Positions 1 to 38,329 of a stretch of 64,000 nucleotides of DNA are shown here, piece by piece; the first letter of the stretch is position 1, and each line of letters begins with the position of its first letter. The notes under the pieces were generated by a model, which was given only the letters and a program-made list of their open reading frames with translations, ran no database searches and was not told where the DNA came from. The DNA is from a virus (lineage: Duplodnaviria > Caudoviricetes), in the IMG/VR virus record IMGVR_UViG_3300037419_000894, positions 1 to 64,000 of that record. One strand, given 5' to 3'. Position numbers and translations under genes: made by a program.

Positions 1-262
1 TTTATTTGCAACAGGTGAATTTGCGGTCCAAGGTGGCCACTTGTGTGGATCTGTGGTATATACGCGCCCGCGGACGTTTTATTAGTTTGCATCAGGTCAG
101 AGATGGGATTTATTTTATTTTTTTTTTGGGATGGGGGTTCAACAAGACTAGAGGGGTATACCCTTTTATACTGTTGATAGTCTATCAGCGGAGGACTAGG
201 ATGATGTGCAGATTTCCACCCCGGCCCGCTGATGCACAGAATTTGGGCAGTTTACTTACGGA

Positions 263-1254
263 AACAAACGCGCACCCACGTTCCACGCACGTTCCACGCG
301 CGTATAAGCGCACGCAGCGCGCGCACGCTGTACCCCTAGCGCAAATTGTTCCACGCGCTTGTACCCACGTTCCACGCGGTTTAAACCGCATGCGCAGGGG
401 TAGCGCACCCGCATGCATAGCAGCGCGTACCACTGTCCATATCAACAGTGTTGTATCCACCCCACAAGACAAAAATATTTGCATCTACTGTATAAAAACC
501 CATTGTAATGCGCAGCGCACAGCGTACAATAAGCACTGTAGTAAGTGCAGTACGTAGTAAGGTGGTGCAGCGGTAAGCACCACTGGTAGCACCCCTGCTA
601 GCGCAACGCTACAGGTGGTACGTTCTTTAACAATGTGCAAGCGCACGTAGTAGCTACCCGTACATAGGTATCGGTAGCAGCGCAACCCCAGTAATACATA
701 CATAGCAATCGGTTCCTTACCCGCTGTGGCAGTTGCTAGCCAAAATGGTAAGTGGTGTAACAGCGCAGGGTACTCCCCTGTAACACAATGGTTGCTTCCT
801 GTATGTAACACATAGCTAGTAGCTATAGTGGGTAAAAGCTTAAACTGGTGCATTATTGCTATTTAGCAATACACTATTACATACCGTAATAGTGCACTTA
901 ACCTAAAGGGTAAACAAAATGGCTAAGCATACCAACACCAGCAACAATACCAACGCACAAGCTAACAATGCAGCTGCACTAGCAGCGCGCGTGCAAGCTA
1001 ACAACGCATACGTGCGTATGCAGCAGCGCATTGCAGCAGTGCAAGCGCAACGCGCAGCTAAGCATGCAGCACGCATTACCGCACGCAAGCAAGCAGCGTA
1101 CATGCAAGCAGTGCAACAGCTTGCTGCGCAATACGGTGTACCCGTACCTAACACCATGTCGGTGCGCGCATATAACAATGCGCAAAAGCACGCACCTAGC
1201 GCAGTACAGGGTGCATGTGCACGGGTGCACGCAATTGCTGCGCAGTACAACGGG
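263..1254. other. GA/TC-dinucleotide-depleted tract
   Basis: Manual count: 1 GA and about 15 TC in about 990 nt (about 60 each expected); none of either in 799-1158. Confidence 0.9.
280..377 (+). repeat. Four direct copies of GTTCCACGC
   Basis: Copies at 280, 291, 348, 369. Confidence 0.85.
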
Positions 1255-1380
1255 GACCGGGCTGCTACGCTTGCAGCATGCAAAGCAGAAGGTATTAACC
1301 CGGCTACCGCACAAACGCAGTATGCAAAGTACAAAAAGCTCCAGCAACAACAGCAACAGCAGCAAGAAGTAGAAGCATAA
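919..1380 (+). CDS. First early gene; Ala/Gln-rich protein with C-terminal putative DNA-binding domain (paralog family member 1)
   Basis: AAAGGG 8 nt before ATG; C-terminal GINPATAQTQYAKYK matches ORFs at 5805, 31746, 32589. Confidence 0.8.
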   Translation: MAKHTNTSNNTNAQANNAAALAARVQANNAYVRMQQRIAAVQAQRAAKHAARITARKQAAYMQAVQQLAAQYGVPVPNTMSVRAYNNAQKHAPSAVQGACARVHAIAAQYNGDRAATLAACKAEGINPATAQTQYAKYKKLQQQQQQQQEVEA

Positions 1381-1393
1381 TGCAACCGACCGC

Positions 1394-1418
1394 ACCCTGA
1401 CCCCAAGCGGGTCAGGGT
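1394..1418 (+). terminator. Hairpin after gene 919-1380, possible terminator or stabiliser
   Basis: Perfect 10-bp stem ACCCTGACCC/GGGTCAGGGT; weak U-tract. Confidence 0.45.
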
Positions 1419-1626
1419 ATTTCCACAAAGTAGCAATAATACACCAGTTTAGGCTAATCAAACACTTTGGGCCCGTAAAATGCGATACCTTACAAGTAAC
1501 GTTTCACGCACTAGGGCCCCGCATGCCCACGTGACAGGTGGCATGTGACTGCATCTTACCATAAAGGCCCTTCGGGCTATAGGGTGCAGTCACTGTACAA
1601 CATGCGTATATGATAGGAGAAATAAC

Positions 1627-1875
1627 ATGAACAAAGTCAACACCCCGGGCCATCAATTCCCAAATAACAAATACGTCAACACCTTCGCCTTGCTGCTTGG
1701 TATTACCTATGCAGCCCACGACGGTGTTAAGCGTAATGCAGTCGATGCGGAGTTGGAATTGCACGCACGCAAGCTAGTTGTGCGCGATTACATCCAAGAT
1801 AATCGCTTACCCGAAACTATCACCAAGGAACAGTCGGGCGCAATCATGCAAGCTTTTGTGTACTTCTATCTGTAA
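1627..1875 (+). CDS. Hypothetical early protein
   Basis: AGGAG RBS, 82 aa. Confidence 0.8.
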   Translation: MNKVNTPGHQFPNNKYVNTFALLLGITYAAHDGVKRNAVDAELELHARKLVVRDYIQDNRLPETITKEQSGAIMQAFVYFYL

Positions 1876-1924
1876 AGCAATTTACTAGCTATGCGTGCAT
1901 GGCTAGTGAGTGCGCTTTTGCACT
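1874..1924 (+). ncRNA. Junction pseudoknot motif copy E1
   Basis: AAAGC, 6-nt linker, hairpin 1885-1906, hairpin AGTGC-[GCTTTT]-GCACT whose loop complements AAAGC. Confidence 0.75.
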
Positions 1925-1941
1925 TGACAGGAGAAACAACT

Positions 1942-2238
1942 ATGAACACCTTTGACCCACGCACTGTAGTACCGTTCGTGAACGTAAAGCAATACATTCA
2001 CGCTGTACTGCAAGAAAACAACGTGTATGACCCTGAACTTGGGGATGACCAGTATTTCCTCGTTATGTACAATGCACGTGAAAAGCTGATTACTGACTGG
2101 CTGGACACGAACTACGGGGAGGACATCGAGGACTATGATGAGTTCTGCGTCCCTATGCACGAAATACATGATGTGTTTAACCACTACATGAAGTATGTGG
2201 AATACCTCATGTGGAACACAATTGCTAACAAGAAGTAG
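1942..2238 (+). CDS. Hypothetical acidic early protein
   Basis: GGAGA RBS before ATG 1942. Confidence 0.8.
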   Translation: MNTFDPRTVVPFVNVKQYIHAVLQENNVYDPELGDDQYFLVMYNAREKLITDWLDTNYGEDIEDYDEFCVPMHEIHDVFNHYMKYVEYLMWNTIANKK

Positions 2239-5804: not shown

Positions 5805-6509
5805 ATGGCAACTGACAAACAAGCAGCTCGCGCAGGTCGTAACGTCAAAGCAGCCGACGCAGTCGTGGCAAACGGCACGAAAGCTGCCAAAGCCCCGCGC
5901 AAAGTCCCGGCTGGCACACTGTCCGAGAAGCCGAAAATGGCTGAACCGACCAATCCTCCGGTCGAAATCACGGAAGAGCAGCGCAAGGCTGACCGTCGCG
6001 CTGACGACATCACCAAGAACGACGCAATGGCCAGGTTCGTGGCACAGCAGACTGGCGAAACCAAGCCGAAAGTCGACATAGCTGCGTTCGAGGCTGAAAT
6101 GGCTGCGCTGAAAGCTAAGTACGGCGTCACCGCTGAAGTGAAGGTCAAGGCCTCGAAAGGTGATAAAATCGTCCAGAACGGCGTGACCAGGCCTGCAGCC
6201 AGCACCCTATGCGGTAAAATCTGGGCCGCAGCCGACCGCATCAGCCAGCGCATTCACAGCGTGGCGCCGATCGCACTGCTGCGCGAGGATCCGGAGCTGA
6301 AGGGTGTGAATGACCACACTATCAAGACGCAGTACGCGAAATGGCGTGCGTTCAACAACGTCTCGGGCCGGCTCCCGCGCATCCAGGCTGTGCACCAGCC
6401 GGCGGAAGGCATCTACAACGAAGCCCTCCCGCATATCGTGCAACCGCAGGCAACTGAGCCTGCCAAAAGCGAGGAGCAGCCGGCTAGCGACGCACCAGCA
6501 GCTGAATAA
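5805..6509 (+). CDS. Ala/Lys-rich protein with putative DNA-binding C-terminal domain (paralog family member 2)
   Basis: CAGGAG RBS; GVTRP...CGKIWAAAD...GVNDHTIKTQYAKWR. Confidence 0.85.
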   Translation: MATDKQAARAGRNVKAADAVVANGTKAAKAPRKVPAGTLSEKPKMAEPTNPPVEITEEQRKADRRADDITKNDAMARFVAQQTGETKPKVDIAAFEAEMAALKAKYGVTAEVKVKASKGDKIVQNGVTRPAASTLCGKIWAAADRISQRIHSVAPIALLREDPELKGVNDHTIKTQYAKWRAFNNVSGRLPRIQAVHQPAEGIYNEALPHIVQPQATEPAKSEEQPASDAPAAE

Positions 6510-28210: not shown

Positions 28211-28362
28211 GCCTGCCTTCGGGCAGGTTGTTTAAAGCTGACGATGCCGCGTAAGCGGAGCTACGGTCTGCTAATCTGCCTGGAATACACGCCACGGGAA
28301 CCGTGACACGGTAACGAAGCATTTTAGTCGCTGGATGCCTTCCAGCCGTCAGCTTTAAACAA
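28211..28362 (+). ncRNA. Structured intergenic element B
   Basis: TTCG hairpin 28212-28227, then perfect 16-bp stem 28228-28243/28347-28362 enclosing three hairpins; ends at the RBS. Confidence 0.65.
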
Positions 28363-28371
28363 GGGAGAACT

Positions 28372-29334
28372 ATGGGTATTCAGCTTGCAATCAAAACACT
28401 GGACGCGATTGCGACTCAAATTGAGTCGGACCAAGGCGCGAAGTTCCGCACTCACCTCGGTCAAGTGATCCCACACATTGGTGATGCCTACCGTGGTGAG
28501 GACAGCGGTTTCCGTTCGCACCTTGGCGCGTCCATGATTGGCAGGCCGTGTGGTCGTAGTCTGTGGTTCAATTTCCGCTGGGTCAAGAAAGCCCGGTTTT
28601 CTGGACGCATGCTGCGTCTGTTCAATAGGGGACATCTTGAAGAAGCTCGCTTCATTGCTATGTTTTTGGCGATTGGTTGCCAAGTTTATCAGCAAGATGC
28701 TAATGGTAATCAGTTTAGGATTTCTGAGCTGGGTGGTCATTTCGGGGGTAGTGGTGACGGCGTTATTGTTGGGATTCCTGATCTCCCTCCTAACACCCCC
28801 GCTCTAGCTGAATTCAAAACCCACAACCTCAAATCATTCACCAAGCTGCAAAAGTCTGGTGTGCGCGAAGCCAAGTTCGAACATTTTGTGCAGATGCAGA
28901 TGTACATGCGCAAGATGCAGCTTCCAGTAGCGATCTATGGTGCGGTATGCAAAGACAACGATGAGCTCCACTTAGAAATCGTCTACCCAGACCAATACTT
29001 TGCAGACCAGTACCTTGAACGTGGGCGCACCATTGTTATGATGCGTCAAGTCCCCGAGCCAATCAAGAACGCTTCGCCTGGCCTGTTCGACTGCAAGTAT
29101 TGCGACTACAACGGTATCTGCTATGACCGTGAGCCTCCCGAGCACAACTGCCGGACTTGCGTACATTCTGAACCGCGTGCAGATGGGACTTGGTGGTGTG
29201 GTGATAAGAAACGACACATGGCAATGTCGTTTGGTAATCTGAGTGACGATGACCACACTCCAGGCGAAACTCTCCAGCTTAGTAAGGAACGTCAGCTCAA
29301 AGGCTGCAAGACCTTCTACGCCTCGGTGATGTAA
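28372..29334 (+). CDS. Cas4/AddB-like PD-(D/E)XK exonuclease
   Basis: ASMIGRPC, GSGDGVI, EFKT, QMQMYM, CKYCDYNGIC. Confidence 0.88.
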   Translation: MGIQLAIKTLDAIATQIESDQGAKFRTHLGQVIPHIGDAYRGEDSGFRSHLGASMIGRPCGRSLWFNFRWVKKARFSGRMLRLFNRGHLEEARFIAMFLAIGCQVYQQDANGNQFRISELGGHFGGSGDGVIVGIPDLPPNTPALAEFKTHNLKSFTKLQKSGVREAKFEHFVQMQMYMRKMQLPVAIYGAVCKDNDELHLEIVYPDQYFADQYLERGRTIVMMRQVPEPIKNASPGLFDCKYCDYNGICYDREPPEHNCRTCVHSEPRADGTWWCGDKKRHMAMSFGNLSDDDHTPGETLQLSKERQLKGCKTFYASVM

Positions 29335-31745: not shown

Positions 31746-32480
31746 ATGTTTATTCTGTTGGACCTCGAAGAGATGTGCGTGCGCTACCGACATCCAAATC
31801 AGAACGTGCTCTTTAATCTTATGACTATCGAGTTCACGAATGCGGCGGTAGCATGCCAAGCAGACGACGATCCTGCGTCGTTCACGCGTTACACGGACCT
31901 GGAGCTCAAACTCTTGTTCCAAAACCTTACCGGACAAAAGTACACGGGCTACAGCCGGGAAATTCTGGTCAAGACCATTATTGCACTCATTGCAACCATT
32001 GAACCCGTGCAAGTCAATGCGTTGGAGCTGCGTGCGCAATCTCTGCACATCAAGGATGAGGAGCAAGGCTTCTTTAAGTACGTGCCTGGGCGCGTTTCGC
32101 CTACCCCGATGCCTGATGGTTACAAACCGCAAGCGCTTACAGCGCGCGCTGGGGTTGCCCCCATAGTTACCCCTAACCCTCCCGCTTTAACGCTGCCTGC
32201 GCGCGCTACGCAAGCGGCAGCTACCCCCGCACCAGCGCCGCAGCGCACCGCTAACCACACTCCAGCGGAGGCGCCCAAAGCTGGAGGTAAGACTGCTAGG
32301 GTTTGGGAGATTGCTGACCGGCAATTGCAACTCCAGCGTGAGGCAAATGAGAAGACTGGTGCAGCGTTAGACCTGAAAGCTCTACGCAAAGCTGTTGCAG
32401 CAGCCTGCGAAGCTGAGGGAGTGAACCCAAGTACCATGAGTGTCCAATTTTCCAAGTGGAAGAGCACCAAAAATTTGTAA
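31746..32480 (+). CDS. Two-domain protein, paralog family member 3
   Basis: C-terminal TARVWEIAD...AEGVNPSTMSVQFSKWK. Confidence 0.8.
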   Translation: MFILLDLEEMCVRYRHPNQNVLFNLMTIEFTNAAVACQADDDPASFTRYTDLELKLLFQNLTGQKYTGYSREILVKTIIALIATIEPVQVNALELRAQSLHIKDEEQGFFKYVPGRVSPTPMPDGYKPQALTARAGVAPIVTPNPPALTLPARATQAAATPAPAPQRTANHTPAEAPKAGGKTARVWEIADRQLQLQREANEKTGAALDLKALRKAVAAACEAEGVNPSTMSVQFSKWKSTKNL

Positions 32481-32527: not shown

Positions 32528-32588
32528 AATCACTCGCAGCCAAATTATTCACCTGTAGTTCATCTCAAACCACAACTAGGGAGTCATC

Positions 32589-33185
32589 ATGGAAAACCAA
32601 GCCGCCCCGGTCGAAAAGACCGCCGAACAAATCGAAGCTGAAAACAAAGCTGCTGCAAAAGCTGCTGCTGACGCCGCCAAGGCTGAAGCTAAAGCCCAAA
32701 AGGAAGCTGCAAAAGCTGCCGCTGATGCTGCCAAGAAAGAAGCCAAAGAAAAGGCCGATGCTGCGCGCGCTGAAGCTAAGAAAGCCAAAGAAGAGGCTGC
32801 TGCCGCCGCCAAGAAGGCTAAGGAAGATGCCGCTGCTGCCGCTGCCAAAGCAAAGGCTGATGCTGCCGCTGCTAAGCAAGCCGAAAAGACCAAGGTCGTC
32901 ATGCCCAGCCAGAACGGCATCACCCGCCCGAAAGCAGACGGCGCCTGCGGAAAGGTCTGGGCCCTGGCCGACGCTGAATCCGCACGTCTGCAACAACCGG
33001 TGCCGATCTCGAATCTGCTGACCGCCGCCCGCGCTGCTGGCCTGAACGACGCGACTACCCGCACGCAGTACGCCCGCTGGAAGACCTTCAACGGCGTATT
33101 CGGCTCGGTGCCGAAGATTGTCGAAGTTGCGCCGGCCGCTGCTGAAACTGCATCGAACGACCAAACCAACACCGCAGCCGCCTAA
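32589..33185 (+). CDS. Histone-H1-like Ala/Lys-repeat protein, paralog family member 4
   Basis: AAKA/EAKK repeats, then GITRP...CGKVWALAD...GLNDATTRTQYARWK. Confidence 0.85.
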   Translation: MENQAAPVEKTAEQIEAENKAAAKAAADAAKAEAKAQKEAAKAAADAAKKEAKEKADAARAEAKKAKEEAAAAAKKAKEDAAAAAAKAKADAAAAKQAEKTKVVMPSQNGITRPKADGACGKVWALADAESARLQQPVPISNLLTAARAAGLNDATTRTQYARWKTFNGVFGSVPKIVEVAPAAAETASNDQTNTAAA

Positions 33186-33324
33186 TTCGGCGCCGGCCTG
33201 GTCCAAGTAGTTGTAGCAAAGAAAACGCGAGCGCCCTCCTCCACTCATAGACGCTCGCGCTTTCCCCTCCTATAAACCCGTACTCGACAAGCTAAGGGCT
33301 TGCTCGATCCTCGTGAGGTTGTCA

Positions 33325-34053
33325 ATGATTCCTATCAACACCCAAGCGCCTGAAAAACGGCGCCAAGCTGACGACGGCTCCAGCTTGGAGGTGCACTCCC
33401 TCTTCTACACAATCCAAGGCGAAGGACCGTACTGCGGTTATCCGTCCGTGTTTGTGCGGCTGGCCGGGTGCAACCTTCAATGCCCGTCCTGTGACACGGA
33501 GTACACCGAAGGTCGCGAGCATTTGCACATCCACATCCTCGGTCCCAGCGCATGCAGGCTCTTTCCCAAAGAAATGAACCACAAGCTTGTGGTCATTACC
33601 GGTGGTGAACCCTTCCGCCAAAACATTGGTCCGTTTGTAAAAGGATTGATTGCAAACGGGACGCATGTTCAGATCGAAACAAACGGCACGCTCGCACCAT
33701 CCGAAGAGTTCCTTGAGGTGATCAACAAACACCCTGACGACGTCACGATCGTTTGCAGCCCAAAGGCTGGCAAGGTCAACCCGTCTCTGTGGCCACACAT
33801 CGACGCCTACAAGTACGTGCTGGATTATAACAGCATGGACCTCGACGGCCTACCGATCCGTGCGCTTAACCACACATGCGCCCCGCGCGTCGCTCGTCCC
33901 CACGAAGGGTTCAACGGTCCGATCTATCTGCAACCAATGGACCCAAAGCATGACGCGGATTACATGCGCAACGTCCGCGCTGTCAAGCGTAGCTGTATGC
34001 AGCACGGATACATCCTCCAATTGCAGATCCACAAAATCATAGGGGTCGAATAA
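33325..34053 (+). CDS. queE: 7-carboxy-7-deazaguanine synthase (radical SAM)
   Basis: FYTIQGEG, VRLAGCNLQCPSCDT (CxxxCxxC), ITGGEP, IETNG, QIHK. Confidence 0.95.
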   Translation: MIPINTQAPEKRRQADDGSSLEVHSLFYTIQGEGPYCGYPSVFVRLAGCNLQCPSCDTEYTEGREHLHIHILGPSACRLFPKEMNHKLVVITGGEPFRQNIGPFVKGLIANGTHVQIETNGTLAPSEEFLEVINKHPDDVTIVCSPKAGKVNPSLWPHIDAYKYVLDYNSMDLDGLPIRALNHTCAPRVARPHEGFNGPIYLQPMDPKHDADYMRNVRAVKRSCMQHGYILQLQIHKIIGVE

Positions 34054-34238: not shown

Positions 34239-34459
34239 TGTCTAAGAAACAAAAGCGCGTCTTCGCGTACAGCAATCTGCCGGCTCGCCCGGGCAACGTG
34301 CTCACGCAGGCAATTGCAGTGGGCCTGCTCATGGACCGCTTGAATGCGCCGGGCTGGGTGTGGGGCGCAGTGGGCCTGTTTTACGCACTCATCTTCATTG
34401 TTGCCATTGTTGCTTCGTTCACTCAAGTCCAGATCGATTACTTCAACAACGAGAAATAA
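34238..34459 (+). CDS. Small membrane protein
   Basis: Two hydrophobic helices; TAATG coupling. Confidence 0.7.
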   Translation: MSKKQKRVFAYSNLPARPGNVLTQAIAVGLLMDRLNAPGWVWGAVGLFYALIFIVAIVASFTQVQIDYFNNEK

Positions 34460-34460
34460 C

Positions 34461-35258
34461 ATGTCCAAACAGAAAGCTCTCGTCGTGCTGAGCGGCGGCC
34501 AAGACTCCACTACCTGCCTAGCCTGGGCTATTGCCCAAGGCTTCGACGTCCACACCATCACCTTCGATTACGGTCAAAAGCACGCAATTGAAATTGCGTC
34601 AGCGTTCAAGGTTGCCAAGATTCTTGGTATCCCGCCGGCCAAAATGGAACTGGTCCAACTCGGTGAAGGCATCCTTGCGGGTACGTCGCCGCTGGTCAAC
34701 CGGGCGGTTGAGCTCGAGCAGTATGCTGATCACCACAGTCTGCCTGGCGGCCTGGAAAAGACGTTCGTGCCGATGCGCAACCAACTGTTCCTGACCGTCG
34801 CTGCGAATCGCGCCTATGTCATGGGCTGCAACGTGCTGGTGACGGGCGTCTGCCAAGAAGACTCCGGCGGCTACCCTGACTGCCGTGCGGTGTTTATCAA
34901 CGCCTTGCAAAGTACGATCAACCACGGCACGTTCACCGGCGAACCGGGCACCCTGCCGCCGCTGCGTATCCTTACCCCGCTGATGTTCCTCACCAAGGCG
35001 CAGTCGGTCAAGCTGGCTATGGAACTGCCAGGCTGCATGGAAGCGCTCGCGTATAGTCATACCAGCTACGACGGCGCCTATCCTCCGGTCGGACACGATC
35101 ACGCAACCCTGCTGCGCGCCAAGGGGTTCGAAGAGGCTGGCGTGCCTGACCCGTTGGTCGTGCGTGCGTGGAAGGAGGGCTTGATGGATTTGCCTAAAAC
35201 CCGGAATTATAATAATGTGATCCCGAATATGGAGGCTGCACAAAGGGCAGTGGAATAA
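34461..35258 (+). CDS. queC: 7-cyano-7-deazaguanine synthase (lacks the Cys4 zinc motif)
   Basis: LSGGQDST PP-loop, FDYGQ, VPMRN, YPDCR, TPLM. Confidence 0.95.
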   Translation: MSKQKALVVLSGGQDSTTCLAWAIAQGFDVHTITFDYGQKHAIEIASAFKVAKILGIPPAKMELVQLGEGILAGTSPLVNRAVELEQYADHHSLPGGLEKTFVPMRNQLFLTVAANRAYVMGCNVLVTGVCQEDSGGYPDCRAVFINALQSTINHGTFTGEPGTLPPLRILTPLMFLTKAQSVKLAMELPGCMEALAYSHTSYDGAYPPVGHDHATLLRAKGFEEAGVPDPLVVRAWKEGLMDLPKTRNYNNVIPNMEAAQRAVE

Positions 35259-35758
35259 TGACTTATCAATCAACTAAGACATTCGGTCACGAGCTCGGCC
35301 TGTCCGCATGCTTCCGGCAGCATGCAGCAACTCACTCGCATTGCTCACTTTTGCACGGCTACGCGCTGTCGTTCAAGTTTGTCTTTGAAGCGGACACTCT
35401 AGACGACCGTAATTGGGTCCAAGACTTCGGGGGTTTAAGAGAACTGAAGCGCCAGCTGCAAGCAACCTTTGACCACAAGCTTGTTGTCGCTGAAGATGAT
35501 CCAAACTTGGACGCAATCTGCTCTCTCAACGGCACAATTGCAGATGTGCTGCTATTGCCCGCTGTTGGATGCGAAGCCTTTGCAAAGCTGGCTTATGATA
35601 TGGCAGTGCAGGTCATCCAAAATGCCAATAACAGGGAGTTCGTAGCCAAGCGCGCGAAAGGTTTGGTGTGGGCAGAAAGTAATCGCGTCCGCGTTGTCTC
35701 GTGCGAGTGTGCTGAACACGGCGCCAATAGCGCCATTTATATCGGAGAAAAGAAGTAA
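35258..35758 (+). CDS. queD: 6-carboxy-5,6,7,8-tetrahydropterin synthase
   Basis: HSHCSLLHGY, DFG, FDHK, C-terminal E-H-x2-NSA. Confidence 0.9.
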   Translation: MTYQSTKTFGHELGLSACFRQHAATHSHCSLLHGYALSFKFVFEADTLDDRNWVQDFGGLRELKRQLQATFDHKLVVAEDDPNLDAICSLNGTIADVLLLPAVGCEAFAKLAYDMAVQVIQNANNREFVAKRAKGLVWAESNRVRVVSCECAEHGANSAIYIGEKK

Positions 35759-36396
35759 TGGAATACCTTCACAAAGACATGGTTGAAATCGACGGTGTGC
35801 AGTACGTCCCGGTGACCGATTTCGACAACGACCGGCAACTCGTCGAGCGCGATGAGATTGTGCGAGCACTTCTTCGCATGGTTGGTGAAGATCCACAACG
35901 CGGCGGTCTGCTGGAGACCCCGAACCGTGTGGTTAAAGCTTGGCAAGCGTGGACGTGCGGTTACAGAATGCAGCCAGCTGATATCCTGAAGGTCTTCGAG
36001 GATGGCGCCGAGAACTGCGATGAAATGGTGGTGCGCAAAGACATCCCCATCTACTCGCACTGCGAACATCACCTCGCACCGATCATCGGCCGCTGCACAA
36101 TCGCCTATATCCCGAACGGCAAGATTGTCGGCTTGTCGAAGATGGACCGCCTGGCGGACGTTTTTGCTCGACGCTTGCAAGTGCAGGAGCGCATGACCAA
36201 CCAAATCGCTGATGCAATGTACGAGCATCTGCAACCCAAGGGCGTCGGCGTGTGGATCAGCGCGCGTCACATGTGTGTCGAGTCACGCGGCGTCCGCAAC
36301 TCCAACAGCGAAACGGTGACGAGCGCTCTGCGCGGCGTCTTCAAGTCGGAAGCAGCAACGCGCGCTGAATTCCTATCGCTGGTGCAGGGGCGCTAG
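35758..36396 (+). CDS. folE: GTP cyclohydrolase I
   Basis: LLETPNRV, SHCEHHL, IVGLSK, RRLQVQER, HMCVESRG. Confidence 0.96.
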   Translation: MEYLHKDMVEIDGVQYVPVTDFDNDRQLVERDEIVRALLRMVGEDPQRGGLLETPNRVVKAWQAWTCGYRMQPADILKVFEDGAENCDEMVVRKDIPIYSHCEHHLAPIIGRCTIAYIPNGKIVGLSKMDRLADVFARRLQVQERMTNQIADAMYEHLQPKGVGVWISARHMCVESRGVRNSNSETVTSALRGVFKSEAATRAEFLSLVQGR

Positions 36397-37175: not shown

Positions 37176-37397
37176 ATGCAAGCATTAGAGTTCATTATTT
37201 CTATCAGGCCTGCTGTTCCGTTCTCAGTGGAGAAGCCATGCCAGCCTGCTAGCAATAGCGAGATTCGACGCTGGTTTAACAACAGAGCTATACGTATCAA
37301 CGGAACATTCCCAAATTGGAATGACACCGTAGTGTTACCAGTTAGTGACCTAGTATTCTTCCCTAAGTCCGTCAATCGTAGAACAACTATCTTTTGA
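37176..37397 (+). CDS. S4/alpha-L-motif-like small protein
   Basis: SNSEIRRWFNNRAIRING resembles the S4 motif S-x-S-EARR-x6-V-x-ING. Confidence 0.5.
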   Translation: MQALEFIISIRPAVPFSVEKPCQPASNSEIRRWFNNRAIRINGTFPNWNDTVVLPVSDLVFFPKSVNRRTTIF

Positions 37398-38329
37398 CCA
37401 TGAATTTGTTTTTAGCCGCGGTCTACACGAACAGCTACATGAAGACCCAAAATCGGTACTCAAAGCTTACCGAGGTTGAGCAGCGGATTATGGACCGAGT
37501 ACCTCACATTCTGGAAAGTTTTCACTATGTCAACGGACAAAAATATGTCGACGTCATGCGGCAACAAGGTGCAAAAGTTTTTCTTGACTCTGGTGCTTTC
37601 TCCGCTCATTCTTTGGGCGTTAGCATCGATATTAATGCTTATTGTGATTACATTATCCGCAATCGTGATATTCTACGGGTTGAGGATGGTGCAGTCATGG
37701 CTTCTGTACTTGACGGTATTGGTGACCCATTACAAACCTACCGCAATCAGCTCTACATGGAAGCAATGGGTGCGAAGCCGTTGCCTTGCTTTCACTTTGG
37801 AGAAGACCCCCGTTACCTCGAATACTACGTTGCGAACTATGACTACATCACCATCGGTGGCCTGGTTCGCAAAACTGCGCAAGACCAAAAAGTCTGGCTC
37901 GACCGCATCTGGCCGCTAATGCTCGACGGTAGCGGTAGACCGAAGCTTAAGGTGCACGCGTTCGGTATGACTGCGCCGTGGCTGATGGAGCGTTACCCTT
38001 GGTGGAGTGTGGACTCTTCGTCTTGGATTCAGGCTGCTGCATTCGGCAGCATCTTCACCAGCGAGCACGGCCCAATTGCTGTGTCAAAGGACTCACCTGC
38101 AAAGCATGACGCAGGTCGCCATCTTAGTACGCTTAAAGACGTGGAACGGCAGGCAATTGAAATGATGCTTGACCTTAAAGGCTTCAACTTCGAGCGTTTG
38201 TCCACAGTCTACGAGTCGCGAGCTTGTTACAACACGCTCGGCTATATGGAACTGAACGATATCATTAACGACCGAATTTCCAGAAACGGCGGTCGGTTTG
38301 AAGTAGAACAAATACAAGAACTTTTCTAG
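37394..38329 (+). CDS. dpdA: DNA 7-deazaguanine transglycosylase (TGT fold)
   Basis: FLDSGAFS, VLDGIGD, PCFHFGE, IGGLV, VHAFG, SVDSSSW; next to folE/queD/queE/queC. Confidence 0.88.
   Translation: MTMNLFLAAVYTNSYMKTQNRYSKLTEVEQRIMDRVPHILESFHYVNGQKYVDVMRQQGAKVFLDSGAFSAHSLGVSIDINAYCDYIIRNRDILRVEDGAVMASVLDGIGDPLQTYRNQLYMEAMGAKPLPCFHFGEDPRYLEYYVANYDYITIGGLVRKTAQDQKVWLDRIWPLMLDGSGRPKLKVHAFGMTAPWLMERYPWWSVDSSSWIQAAAFGSIFTSEHGPIAVSKDSPAKHDAGRHLSTLKDVERQAIEMMLDLKGFNFERLSTVYESRACYNTLGYMELNDIINDRISRNGGRFEVEQIQELF

Follow-up and report, generated by a model that had tools for sequence, protein, structure and literature searches.

Why is roughly the first kilobase of a soil phage genome, including its first early gene, written almost without the dinucleotides GA and TC? 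The question arises at the left end of IMGVR_UViG_3300037419_000894, a soil phage record with a 74-kb genome, of which positions 1-64,000 form the window. Over 263-1254 (992 nt) GA occurs once, at 468, where base composition predicts 67.6 copies, and TC 15 times where it predicts 54.1, with expected totals ranging over methods from 58 to 68 for GA and from 54 to 59 for TC. Between 797 and 1159 neither dinucleotide occurs, and all of these coordinates and counts reproduce those of a preliminary description of the locus (one GA, about 15 TC, none of either in 799-1158). Sliding 992-nt windows along the genome, a check that the same description had proposed, held on average 57.8 GA (sd 11.2) and 58.0 TC (sd 11.3), with genome-wide minima of 1 GA at position 262 and 11 TC at 457. 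Poisson tails computed from the dinucleotide frequencies of the remaining genome were 2e-24 for GA and 1e-11 for TC. The two longest GA-free gaps of the whole genome are those from 468 to 1255 (787 nt) and from 261 to 468 (207 nt), followed by one of 168 nt, and the gap from 797 to 1159 is the genome's longest that lacks both GA and TC, the runner-up outside the tract measuring 93 nt; no stretch in the rest of the genome comes near this level of depletion. AA and TT show no enrichment in the desert, and a mutational footprint of the APOBEC kind (TC to TT, GA to AA) was rejected on that ground. Coordinates of the desert and of the features discussed below are collected in Table 1.

Table 1. Positions, strands and supporting evidence for the motif desert, its surrounding elements, gp1 with its paralogues, and the modification genes.
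Feature	Position	Strand	Evidence
Terminal-repeat copy of the record, equal to 74053-74241	1..188		blastn, 99.5% over 189 nt
Conserved element AGTTTACTTACGG (CCAATTTACTTACAG across the family), bounds the GA-free run on the left	249..261	+	14 loci compared
Motif desert: 1 GA, 15 TC and 3 GGC/GCC in 993 nt	262..1254		word counts
Four direct repeats of GTTCCACGC	280..384	+	repeat search, families D1/D3
Invariant 23-nt box CTACTGTATA(A/T)AAACCCAT(T/G)G	485..507	+	invariant in 5 loci; shared 9-mers
Desert core without GA or TC on either strand	798..1158		GA|TC gap 797 to 1159
28-nt inverted repeat, left arm, pairs with 1428-1455	837..864	+	repeat I1, 89% complementary
gp1, first early gene, 153 aa	919..1380	+	ORF; 82 homologues; structure model; codon tests
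Terminator-like hairpin ACCCTGACCC/GGGTCAGGGT, directly 3' of the gp1 stop codon	1394..1418	+	repeat I17
28-nt inverted repeat, right arm	1428..1455	+	repeat I1
Conserved element CACGTGACAGGTGGCATGTGACTG before the second gene; has GA, outside the desert	1527..1550	+	L039, L041 and G002 compared
gp1 paralogue (shared C-terminal domain), 12.4% Asp+Glu, GA/TC density normal	5805..6509	+	
gp1 paralogue, 9.8% Asp+Glu	31746..32480	+	
gp1 paralogue adjoining QueE, 13.1% Asp+Glu	32589..33185	+	
QueE-like radical SAM enzyme (preQ0 pathway)	33313..34053	+	phrog_2076, E 2.5e-58; Pfam Radical_SAM
QueC	34344..35258	+	PF06508, E 3.6e-51
QueD (PTPS)	35258..35758	+	PF01242, E 1.9e-11
FolE (GTP cyclohydrolase I)	35758..36396	+	PF01227, E 1.6e-70
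DpdA-type DNA guanine transglycosylase	37394..38329	+	phrog_887, E 9.4e-80

The avoidance acts at the level of the DNA, as the preliminary description had supposed, in that about 650 nt of the desert are non-coding leader DNA and, within gp1, synonymous recoding would bring back 6-13 GA and 11-14 TC. Codon-shuffled controls, also proposed beforehand, bear this out: residues 1-112 recoded with genome codon usage held a mean of 6.3 GA and 11.3 TC against an observed 0 and 1 (P <= 0.0005), and in six genes or parts of genes taken from the deserts of four phages recoding gives 5-10 GA and 6-23 TC against an observed 0-1 (P <= 0.004). The same preference is visible codon by codon in four pooled gp1 genes, where GCC serves for 0 of 147 Ala, GGC for 1 of 17 Gly, TCN for 1 of 19 Ser, ATC for 0 of 11 Ile and GTC for 0 of 46 Val. 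A blind trinucleotide test, which ranked by depletion the 24 complementary pairs that contain no GA or TC in seven related deserts, revealed a second banned word, with GCC/GGC the most depleted pair in six of the seven. Observed and expected GGC/GCC counts were 3 vs 33 in this phage (G000), 0 vs 36 in G005, 1 vs 13 in L001, 4 vs 21 in G002, 1 vs 9 in L011 and 6 vs 14.5 in L012; GGT/ACC and GGG/CCC showed no depletion in the same scan. The two rules also share their extent in L041, where a 744-nt run free of GGC and GCC coincides with an 816-nt run free of GA and TC.

These words lead to the phage's own modification genes. The genome carries a FolE, QueD, QueE and QueC set, which would make preQ0, together with a DpdA that by tblastn is 63% identical to Seuratvirus DpdAs (the genus of CAjan), 57.7% to that of Iggy and 56.9% to that of 9g; a Pfam TGT (PF01702) search of the genome gave no match, although DpdA is present. 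For CAjan the DpdA motifs have been mapped to GA and GGC (PMC7544227), and for Iggy to GA only, where at least 97% of the sites carry the modification (PMC10484667). Our locus resembles these Queuovirinae dPreQ0 systems in having the same five genes in syntenic arrangement, and the desert bans precisely the motifs mapped in those systems, together with their complements. It differs in that the CAjan and Iggy papers report no motif-free region and neither genome has one, and in that the specificity of the enzyme is here read indirectly, from the words that the desert avoids. From these genes we infer that the phage very probably replaces some guanines in its own DNA by a modified base. Because orthologues at 58-63% identity have mapped motifs, DpdA would most likely put a 7-deazaguanine in place of G at GA sites, and probably GGC sites too, in both strands, genome-wide and after replication.

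Evaluating related phages, we found about ten metagenomic loci that keep the same desert at 22-30% nucleotide divergence, although 42-45% of all single-base changes in gp1, and about 50% of the synonymous ones, create a banned word, which argues firmly that selection keeps the desert in these diverged relatives. In G005 and L041 not a single banned word occurs across 393-402 nt of gp1. Every long contig with a gp1 homologue also has a DpdA, at 71-79% identity (seven contigs, 68426, 62744, 47790, 70657, 71881, 64579 and 71069, paired by equal nucleotide counts), and no relative lacking dpdA was found. The desert is not obligatory: in G003 all preQ0 genes and a DpdA at 79% identity are present, yet GA and TC are near normal in its gp1, and L002/L003/L006, L042 and G004 share this combination. 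Scans of the cultured phages CAjan, Iggy, VPv62 and GH32 found no desert, and neither megablast nor blastn matched the left end to any cultured phage. In L004, the 280 nt that follow gp1 are free of GA and TC but rich in GGC/GCC (21 vs 9.4 expected); a reading of L004 as a GA-only lineage (26 vs 30 GGC/GCC) was withdrawn, as gp1 and its upstream sequence are poor in GGC/GCC (5 vs 20.6) and the excess is confined to those 280 nt.

Taken together, we read 262-1254 as a self-modification motif desert that keeps the first early cassette unmodified, and give this reading a probability of roughly 0.72. The inference at the core of the preliminary description, that selection keeps the tract clear of DpdA motifs and hence of 7-deazaguanine, is supported by the preQ0/DpdA genes, the blind GGC/GCC result and the conservation in relatives. 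The first early unit (promoter-like box, leader, gp1 and terminator hairpin) is composed almost without GA, TC, GGC and GCC, under a rule that reaches into the codon choice and amino-acid make-up of gp1, whose residues 1-112 have no Asp or Glu. Motif avoidance, its action on the DNA, its maintenance by selection and the set of enzyme genes are established by these data, the modification, its motifs in this phage and the purpose of the desert being deduced. With almost no guanine in it that DpdA could replace, the cassette is expected to arrive in the cell as canonical DNA within an otherwise modified chromosome, and about 1 kb of first early gene and control region thus probably stays ordinary DNA.

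As for the purpose, we tentatively propose, at somewhat less than even odds, that the unmodified strands of the gp1 gene leave modification-dependent host defences nothing to cut or excise, such that gp1, needed first, would be made from a cassette spared by the GmrSD-like GrwAB and by Dag glycosylases. GrwAB (PMC12137116) and Dag1/Dag2 (bioRxiv 10.1101/2025.10.29.685425) attack Queuovirinae or preQ0 DNA, and a selective agent of this kind, hitting modified guanine on either strand, fits a purge of a whole gene on two strands. The parallel is imperfect in that the published escape is loss of DpdA function and not a desert. Surviving defences against modified DNA is nevertheless the best fit to the two-strand purge, with readability by RNA polymerase as its main rival. 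A broader and more doubtful extension is that phages which hypermodify their DNA begin their early arm with a "stealth" cassette of canonical DNA, with nothing in it for type IV GmrSD-like nucleases or deazaguanine glycosylases, and that gp1 is a first-strike counter-defence or take-over factor. Some relatives have a second acid-free protein, proposed in the same role as gp1; in G005 a second acid-free ORF encodes 88 aa. A literature search returned no description of a modification-free region in phage DNA.

The purpose put forward in the preliminary description, that the tract stays readable by host RNA polymerase, terminase or an initiator, fared less well than its core inference. In its main form this rival holds that promoters or templates containing 7-deazaguanine impede host RNA polymerase, sigma-70 or some other protein of host or phage that reads DNA, that the first gene is kept readable for the unaided host enzyme, and that gp1, as a paralogue of an annotated transcriptional activator, would then aid transcription of the modified remainder. 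In the -35 consensus TTGACA, positions G-33 and A-32 form a GA, which means that every consensus -35 would be modified, and the box upstream of gp1 is of a TG-TATA(A/T)A type that would need no -35. Further in keeping with this rival, the coding strand of G005 and G002 is TC-free (and the template therefore without GA) for about 750 nt past the end of the two-strand desert; gp1 ends in a three-helix bundle with weak matches to the DNA-binding domains of Fis and NtrC, to Mu Mor/C and to homeodomains; and Iggy gp51 and CAjan gp46, syntenic to the paralogue that adjoins QueE, are annotated as putative transcriptional activators. Template reading, however, cannot account for the purge of GA from the coding strand, which costs all Asp and Glu codons, and the remaining early genes are GA-rich and still need to be transcribed. 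Early genes are moreover expressed from modified DNA, with no desert, in CAjan, in Iggy and in the closely related G003, and the literature search found no evidence of preQ0 impeding RNA polymerase; we therefore consider this purpose unlikely, although it is the strongest of the rivals to survival of host defences.

Three further alternatives were weighed. Avoidance of host readers of GA/TC sites, such as restriction, Dnd/Ssp phosphorothioation-dependent systems or DarT, was the other option raised beforehand; it would leave the phage's own DpdA without a part, and it might seem apt in that GA or TC is found in many sites of restriction and phosphorothioation and that GATC, TCGA, GGCC and CCGG have zero copies in the desert. 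A ban on all GA and TC in any context is far wider than any such site, however, the second banned word, GGC/GCC, is a DpdA motif, and palindromes free of GA and TC are enriched instead of avoided, 3-4 fold for GCGC (28 vs 8.2), TGCA (19 vs 6.9), GTAC (13 vs 3.4) and CTAG (6 vs 1.5), and 2-6 fold when CGCG and GCATGC (3 vs 0.5) are included. The GTTCCACGC repeats within the tract also contain GTTC, a known phosphorothioation site, and we hold avoidance of host sites to be very improbable. Slimmer still is the prospect of a constraint on the RNA, in which the transcript would escape a ribonuclease, or Rho, through a lack of the pyrimidine-C steps that its primary site recognises. UC is indeed rare on the mRNA strand, CC is mildly low in 263-1254 (50 vs 78 expected), and the downstream extension in G005 is low in both TC and CC with GA normal; but GA (1 vs 68) is more strictly absent from the mRNA strand in the window than UC, and relatives lack both, so that both strands obey the rule alike and the depletion is not confined to pyrimidine-C as in a Rho-evading, YC-poor transcript. 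GGC and GCC are also both banned, the GA-free run reaches upstream of the conserved promoter-like box, and Rfam returned no family for the desert region, with a chance miRNA-like match only. Least probable of all is that the protein came first, with an acid-free, basic, low-complexity gp1 leaving the DNA bias as a by-product or as a remnant of foreign origin. The gp1 homologues are Ala/Gln/Asn/Arg-rich, and 34 of the 82 are entirely without Asp and Glu, as such a need would predict, but the non-coding leader and 3' flank are likewise purged, the codon-shuffle controls contradict this reading, GA and TC being avoided at synonymous and cross-codon positions for a given protein sequence, the avoidance of TC, GGC and GCC is unlinked to acidic residues, and the desert has survived the divergence described above.

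Several conserved elements frame the desert. The AGTTTACTTACGG element at its left edge is unique, being the window's sole match at <=2 mismatches, and TTACTTAC lies upstream of gp1 in 14 of 14 loci examined. The GTTCCACGC repeats contain four of the desert's 15 TC, and their word is also found in the closest relative, L039. The invariant box at 485-507 is, judged by its sequence, a candidate extended -10-type early promoter or an operator of the gp1 unit; a generic scan for sigma-70 promoters and terminators did not rise above shuffles (3 vs 3.4). The 28-nt inverted repeat brackets gp1, and L039 has an analogous covarying pair, with pairing of the 5' and 3' flanks strong in both this phage and L039 (the control, a mononucleotide shuffle, is too weak for judging other loci). 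Equivalents of the hairpin 3' of gp1 occur in L004, L039, L041 and G005, and the CACGTGACAGGTGGCATGTGACTG element recurs in L039, L041 and G002.

Whether the desert lies at the end of the chromosome that enters first bears on comparison with known systems. The terminal repeat at 1-188 is G/T-rich, normal in GA density and outside the desert, and may be a true DTR or else an assembly overlap. Iggy has a 1091-bp DTR at the syntenic place, the G003 record has a 158-nt end repeat, and the records of this phage and G003 both begin upstream of gp1. Logan contigs of 20,971 nt from X1 and X3 read through position 1 and span window positions 1-2000, that of X3 extending 2,680 nt beyond position 1. Upstream of the desert, over record positions 1-261, GA density is normal, and therefore a simple picture of an unmodified leading end fails if position 1 is the physical end.

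T7 gene 0.3 (Ocr), with transcription-driven entry, and the first-step-transfer DNA of T5 are leading-region strategies. Our locus is similar to these in having a self-contained first gene of the early arm whose product would be needed while the remaining genome is still unexposed. In contrast to them, the leading position of this end is putative here; gp1, unlike Ocr, is basic (17 Lys+Arg vs 4 Asp+Glu) and not an acidic DNA mimic, and the protection would be aimed at modification-dependent attack and not at classical restriction. Restriction-site avoidance in phages is alike in that selection strips short words read by an enzyme acting on DNA; here, however, the words are those of the phage's own modifying enzyme and not of host nucleases, they are a dinucleotide and a trinucleotide on both strands, and they are avoided locally (about 1 kb) and not genome-wide, while palindromes are not depleted in general, ordinary ones being enriched in the tract. 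If our reading is right, 7-deazaguanine modification is locally costly or hazardous, enough to strip a protein of two amino acids and to dictate which codons are used across about 1 kb. The vocabulary of a desert would then give a prediction of DpdA motifs in uncultured phages from sequence alone (GA and GGC here), where only two DpdA motifs have been mapped experimentally so far, and gp1 would become a candidate early regulator or counter-defence factor of modified phages facing modification-dependent immunity. Desert-bearing and desert-free sister phages with near-identical DpdA sets make the question directly testable by culture.

The product of the gene so constrained is Ala/Gln/Asn-rich, and its contrast with its paralogues agrees with the preliminary description, which had noted no acidic residue in positions 1-112 and three Asp/Glu-rich paralogues: the first Asp/Glu is residue 113, and the four in total make up 2.6% of gp1 against the percentages in Table 1. 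Searches of gp1 against Pfam and PHROG gave no family, and no relation to known anti-defence proteins was detectable, the fold matches being weak. Foldseek with gp1 and with its C-terminal domain gave no significant match (best E 2.3, Fis), the full-length search being dominated by the long helix, and a VIA search with the C-terminal domain reached Z 5-6.4, with homeodomains amid unrelated helical matches. By tblastn against cultured phages the paralogue domain alone was found, in Rhizobium and Vibrio phages, and a single-protein scan of IMG/VR gave no match, whereas an alignment-based scan did find relatives. In the structure model (pLDDT 84.5) the N-terminal part is a long helix, and the C-terminal domain, of three helices, is common to the three paralogues in the same genome. 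On our leading proposal for the purpose, gp1 would be a basic, probably dimeric, HTH-like protein. The window's gp1 belongs to the gp1 clade that holds the most relaxed members, and its own desert is leaky, with its 15 TC and with all four Asp/Glu codons of the gene at the C-terminus of gp1.

Between positions 263 and 1254, at the start of the genome, we recounted one GA (at 468) against 68 expected and 15 TC against 54 expected from base composition, which confirms the depletion reported in the preliminary description; Poisson tails for this desert versus the remaining genome were 2e-24 for GA and 1e-11 for TC. No GA-free gaps in the whole genome are longer than the two that adjoin here (261 to 468 and 468 to 1255; the third longest is 168 nt), and GA counts per sliding 992-nt window (mean 57.8, sd 11.2) reach their genome-wide minimum of 1 at position 262. 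The longest run with neither GA nor TC extends from 797 to 1159, matching the word-free stretch described earlier at 799-1158. Likewise as described, the first early gene, gp1 (919-1380), encodes no acidic residue before position 113, while its three paralogues contain 10-13% Asp+Glu. Elsewhere, a 528-nt run without TT (32559-33087), also low in GT, AC and TC, forms the Lys/Ala/Glu-rich low-complexity N-terminal part of the paralogue at 32589-33185.

A purely protein-level cause of the desert is contradicted by recoding and by codon usage. With the protein fixed and genome codon usage applied, 5-10 GA and 6-23 TC per gene arise versus 0-1 observed (window gp1 residues 1-112, gp1 of the related locus L001, gp1 and gp2 of L004, gp1 and orf2 of the related phage G005; P ≤0.004), and counts also rise when each gene's own synonymous codons are shuffled. 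Codons that are common in the remaining genome are nearly missing from four pooled gp1 genes (Ala GCC 0/147, Gly GGC 1/17, Ser TCN 1/19, Ile ATC 0/11, Val GTC 0/46). The non-coding DNA upstream of gp1 is purged as well, over ~650 nt. The cause is at the DNA level, as had been proposed from the sequence.

Ranking the 48 trinucleotides without GA and TC by island/background frequency revealed GCC (0.16) and GGC (0.29) as the two most depleted, and GCC/GGC ranks first of the 24 complementary pairs in 6 of 7 deserts. Observed versus expected counts were 3 versus 33 in the window's own phage (Markov-1: 40), 0 versus 36 in G005, 1 versus 13 in L001, 4 versus 21 in G002, 1 versus 9 in L011 and 6 versus 14.5 in L012, and the same test found no depletion of GGT/ACC or GGG/CCC. 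Avoidance of GA/TC alone would if anything favour GCC, since as an Ala codon it is "safe" at either junction. Published DpdA motifs come from two phages only, CAjan and Iggy (PMC7544227, PMC10484667), whose published GA figures our recounts match (3213 and 2840). The CAjan motifs are GA and GGC, as the preliminary description stated, with weak GGT besides (PMC7544227); the Iggy motif is GA alone, with ≥97% of sites modified (PMC10484667). The vocabulary avoided on the two strands of the desert thus coincides exactly with the words modified by a Seuratvirus-like DpdA, and we class the desert as a local, cassette-shaped motif avoidance aimed at the phage's own modification words. Neither the CAjan and Iggy motif papers (PMC7544227, PMC10484667) nor full-text literature searches yielded any account of a modification-free region. 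L004 was considered as an exception to GGC/GCC avoidance and rejected, with 5 versus 20.6 expected in gp1 and its upstream region; its excess is confined to the 280 nt after gp1.

Among 82 gp1 homologues, all metagenomic, 34 lack any Asp or Glu. When the loci are oriented with gp1 on the plus strand, gp1 and the DNA flanking it lie within two-strand deserts of 450-1,400 nt in the closest relative, L039, and in L001, L011, L004/L005, L012, L041 (816 nt without GA and TC), G002 and G005 (1,205 nt without GA, TC, GGC and GCC); in L040 the desert is partial. The strongest, in L010/G005, includes a second ORF (reverse strand, 28250-28516 in gp1 orientation) of 88 aa without Asp or Glu; at the matching place L004 has a 53-aa acid-free ORF, but in a GGC/GCC-rich stretch (21 versus 9.4 expected). 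Since gp1 genes diverge by 22-30% in nucleotides while 42-45% of all single-base changes within a desert (roughly 50% when only synonymous changes are counted) would create a banned word, the deserts are held by purifying selection. In the gp1 tree, acid-free members are scattered throughout and members with at least 4 Asp/Glu, the window's gp1 included, fall mostly in one clade, a distribution indicating that the constraint was relaxed repeatedly.

The desert is optional. G003 has a full preQ0 pathway and DpdA at 79% identity, yet no desert; no dpdA-minus relative was found among those examined. The same scan found none in L002/L003/L006, L042 and G004 or in cultured CAjan, Iggy, VPv62 and GH32, and DpdA is, as judged by contig-length matching, carried by desert-bearing and desert-free long contigs alike. 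The circular record of Vibrio phage GH32 (L045) has a 414-nt CA-free, C-poor tract near its start (69-483).

In tblastn the phage's own DpdA, which the Pfam TGT model did not match, shares 63% identity with Seuratvirus DpdAs, 57.7% with the gene annotated as DpdA in Iggy and 57% with that of 9g. The early/replication arm runs rightward (~0.9-43.5 kb) and the structural arm leftward; the replication module is syntenic with Iggy and CAjan, and the primase/helicase is 53% identical to counterparts in Pseudomonas phages PaMx25 and NP1. Metagenomic runs containing DNA of this phage are from soil and rhizosphere. The window makes up the first 64 kb of a 74,241-bp record with repeated ends (1-188 = 74053-74241). 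This record (1-188) and G003 (1-158) each open upstream of gp1, with end repeats that show a one-base difference within a T-run. They may be genuine DTRs; alternatively, a homopolymer bubble is where each assembly was cut.

As to purpose, we tentatively suggest, at a probability of roughly 0.35, that the cassette is unmodified so that modification-dependent host defences find no target. The purge takes in a whole transcription unit, both strands and all Asp/Glu codons, which fits an agent acting at modified G on either strand. GmrSD-like GrwAB restricts all Queuovirinae, with escape by DpdA mutations (PMC12137116), and Dag glycosylases degrade preQ0, dG+ and 7-deazaguanine DNA (bioRxiv 10.1101/2025.10.29.685425). 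Under such attack an unmodified cassette would remain intact and transcribable, and a pressure varying with host would explain desert gain and loss between lineages.

The purpose first proposed, a tract kept readable by host RNA polymerase, strikes us as rather unlikely: the GA step within TTGACA and a template-strand-only TC avoidance, which in G005 and G002 continues downstream for ~750 nt, are in its favour, but it leaves the coding-strand purge and the relatives without a desert unexplained. In that downstream tract of G005 and G002 (~750-1400 nt downstream of gp1, past the two-strand desert), the coding strand is nearly TC-free (1 versus 33 expected in G005) with normal GA, and CC is also 3-fold low; the tract follows a template-strand-only or YC-type rule. 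Avoidance of restriction or phosphorothioate sites, the alternative offered earlier, and RNA-level readers such as Rho are both contradicted by our codon and word data.

Features of the gp1 cassette and the preQ0/DpdA genes (window positions)
Feature	Position	Remarks
Unique conserved element, family form CCAATTTACTTACAG, also written (CC)AATTTACTTAC(A/G)G	249-261	upstream of gp1 in 14/14 loci
Four repeats of GTTCCACGC	280-384	just inside desert, after the conserved element
23-nt box CTACTGTATA(A/T)AAACCCAT(T/G)G	485-507	invariant in five loci
28-nt inverted repeat	837-864 / 1428-1455	89% complementary; flanks entire gp1 gene
Terminator-like hairpin	1394-1418	3' of gp1; recurs in relatives
Conserved ~24-nt element CACGTGACAGGTGGCATGTGA(A/C)TG	1527-1550	ahead of second early gene, outside desert; common to L039, L041, G002
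QueE	33313-34053	
QueC	34344-35258	
QueD	35258-35758	
FolE	35758-36396	
DpdA-type transglycosylase	37394-38329	phrog_887, E 9e-80

Ahead of the first element lie a T-run, a G/A-rich tract and a ATATCACCCCGG-like box; the element itself bounds the GA-free run on the left and may be a packaging site, terminus or start signal. Of the desert's 15 TC, each a GA site on the bottom strand, 4 lie in the GTTCCACGC repeats. The 23-nt box, followed in order by leader, gp1 and hairpin, resembles an extended -10 promoter of the TG-TATA(A/T)A type and would as such need no GA-containing TTGACA. Modelled gp1 has a ~65-residue helix and a three-helix C-terminal domain (pLDDT 84-86); Fis, NtrC DNA-binding domains, Mu Mor/C and homeodomains come up as weak fold matches, which makes DNA binding no more than plausible. 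The inverted repeat, with an analogous covarying pair of different outer sequence around gp1 in L039, could be a 5'UTR/3'UTR pairing (e.g., a processing or stabilising stem) or the cassette ends. The element ahead of the second early gene contains GA, so modification is predicted there; the main early operon may use this element as its operator or promoter. The 9-mer TGACCACAC, which contains GA and does not occur inside the desert, recurs at -552 to -829 relative to gp1 in six related loci.
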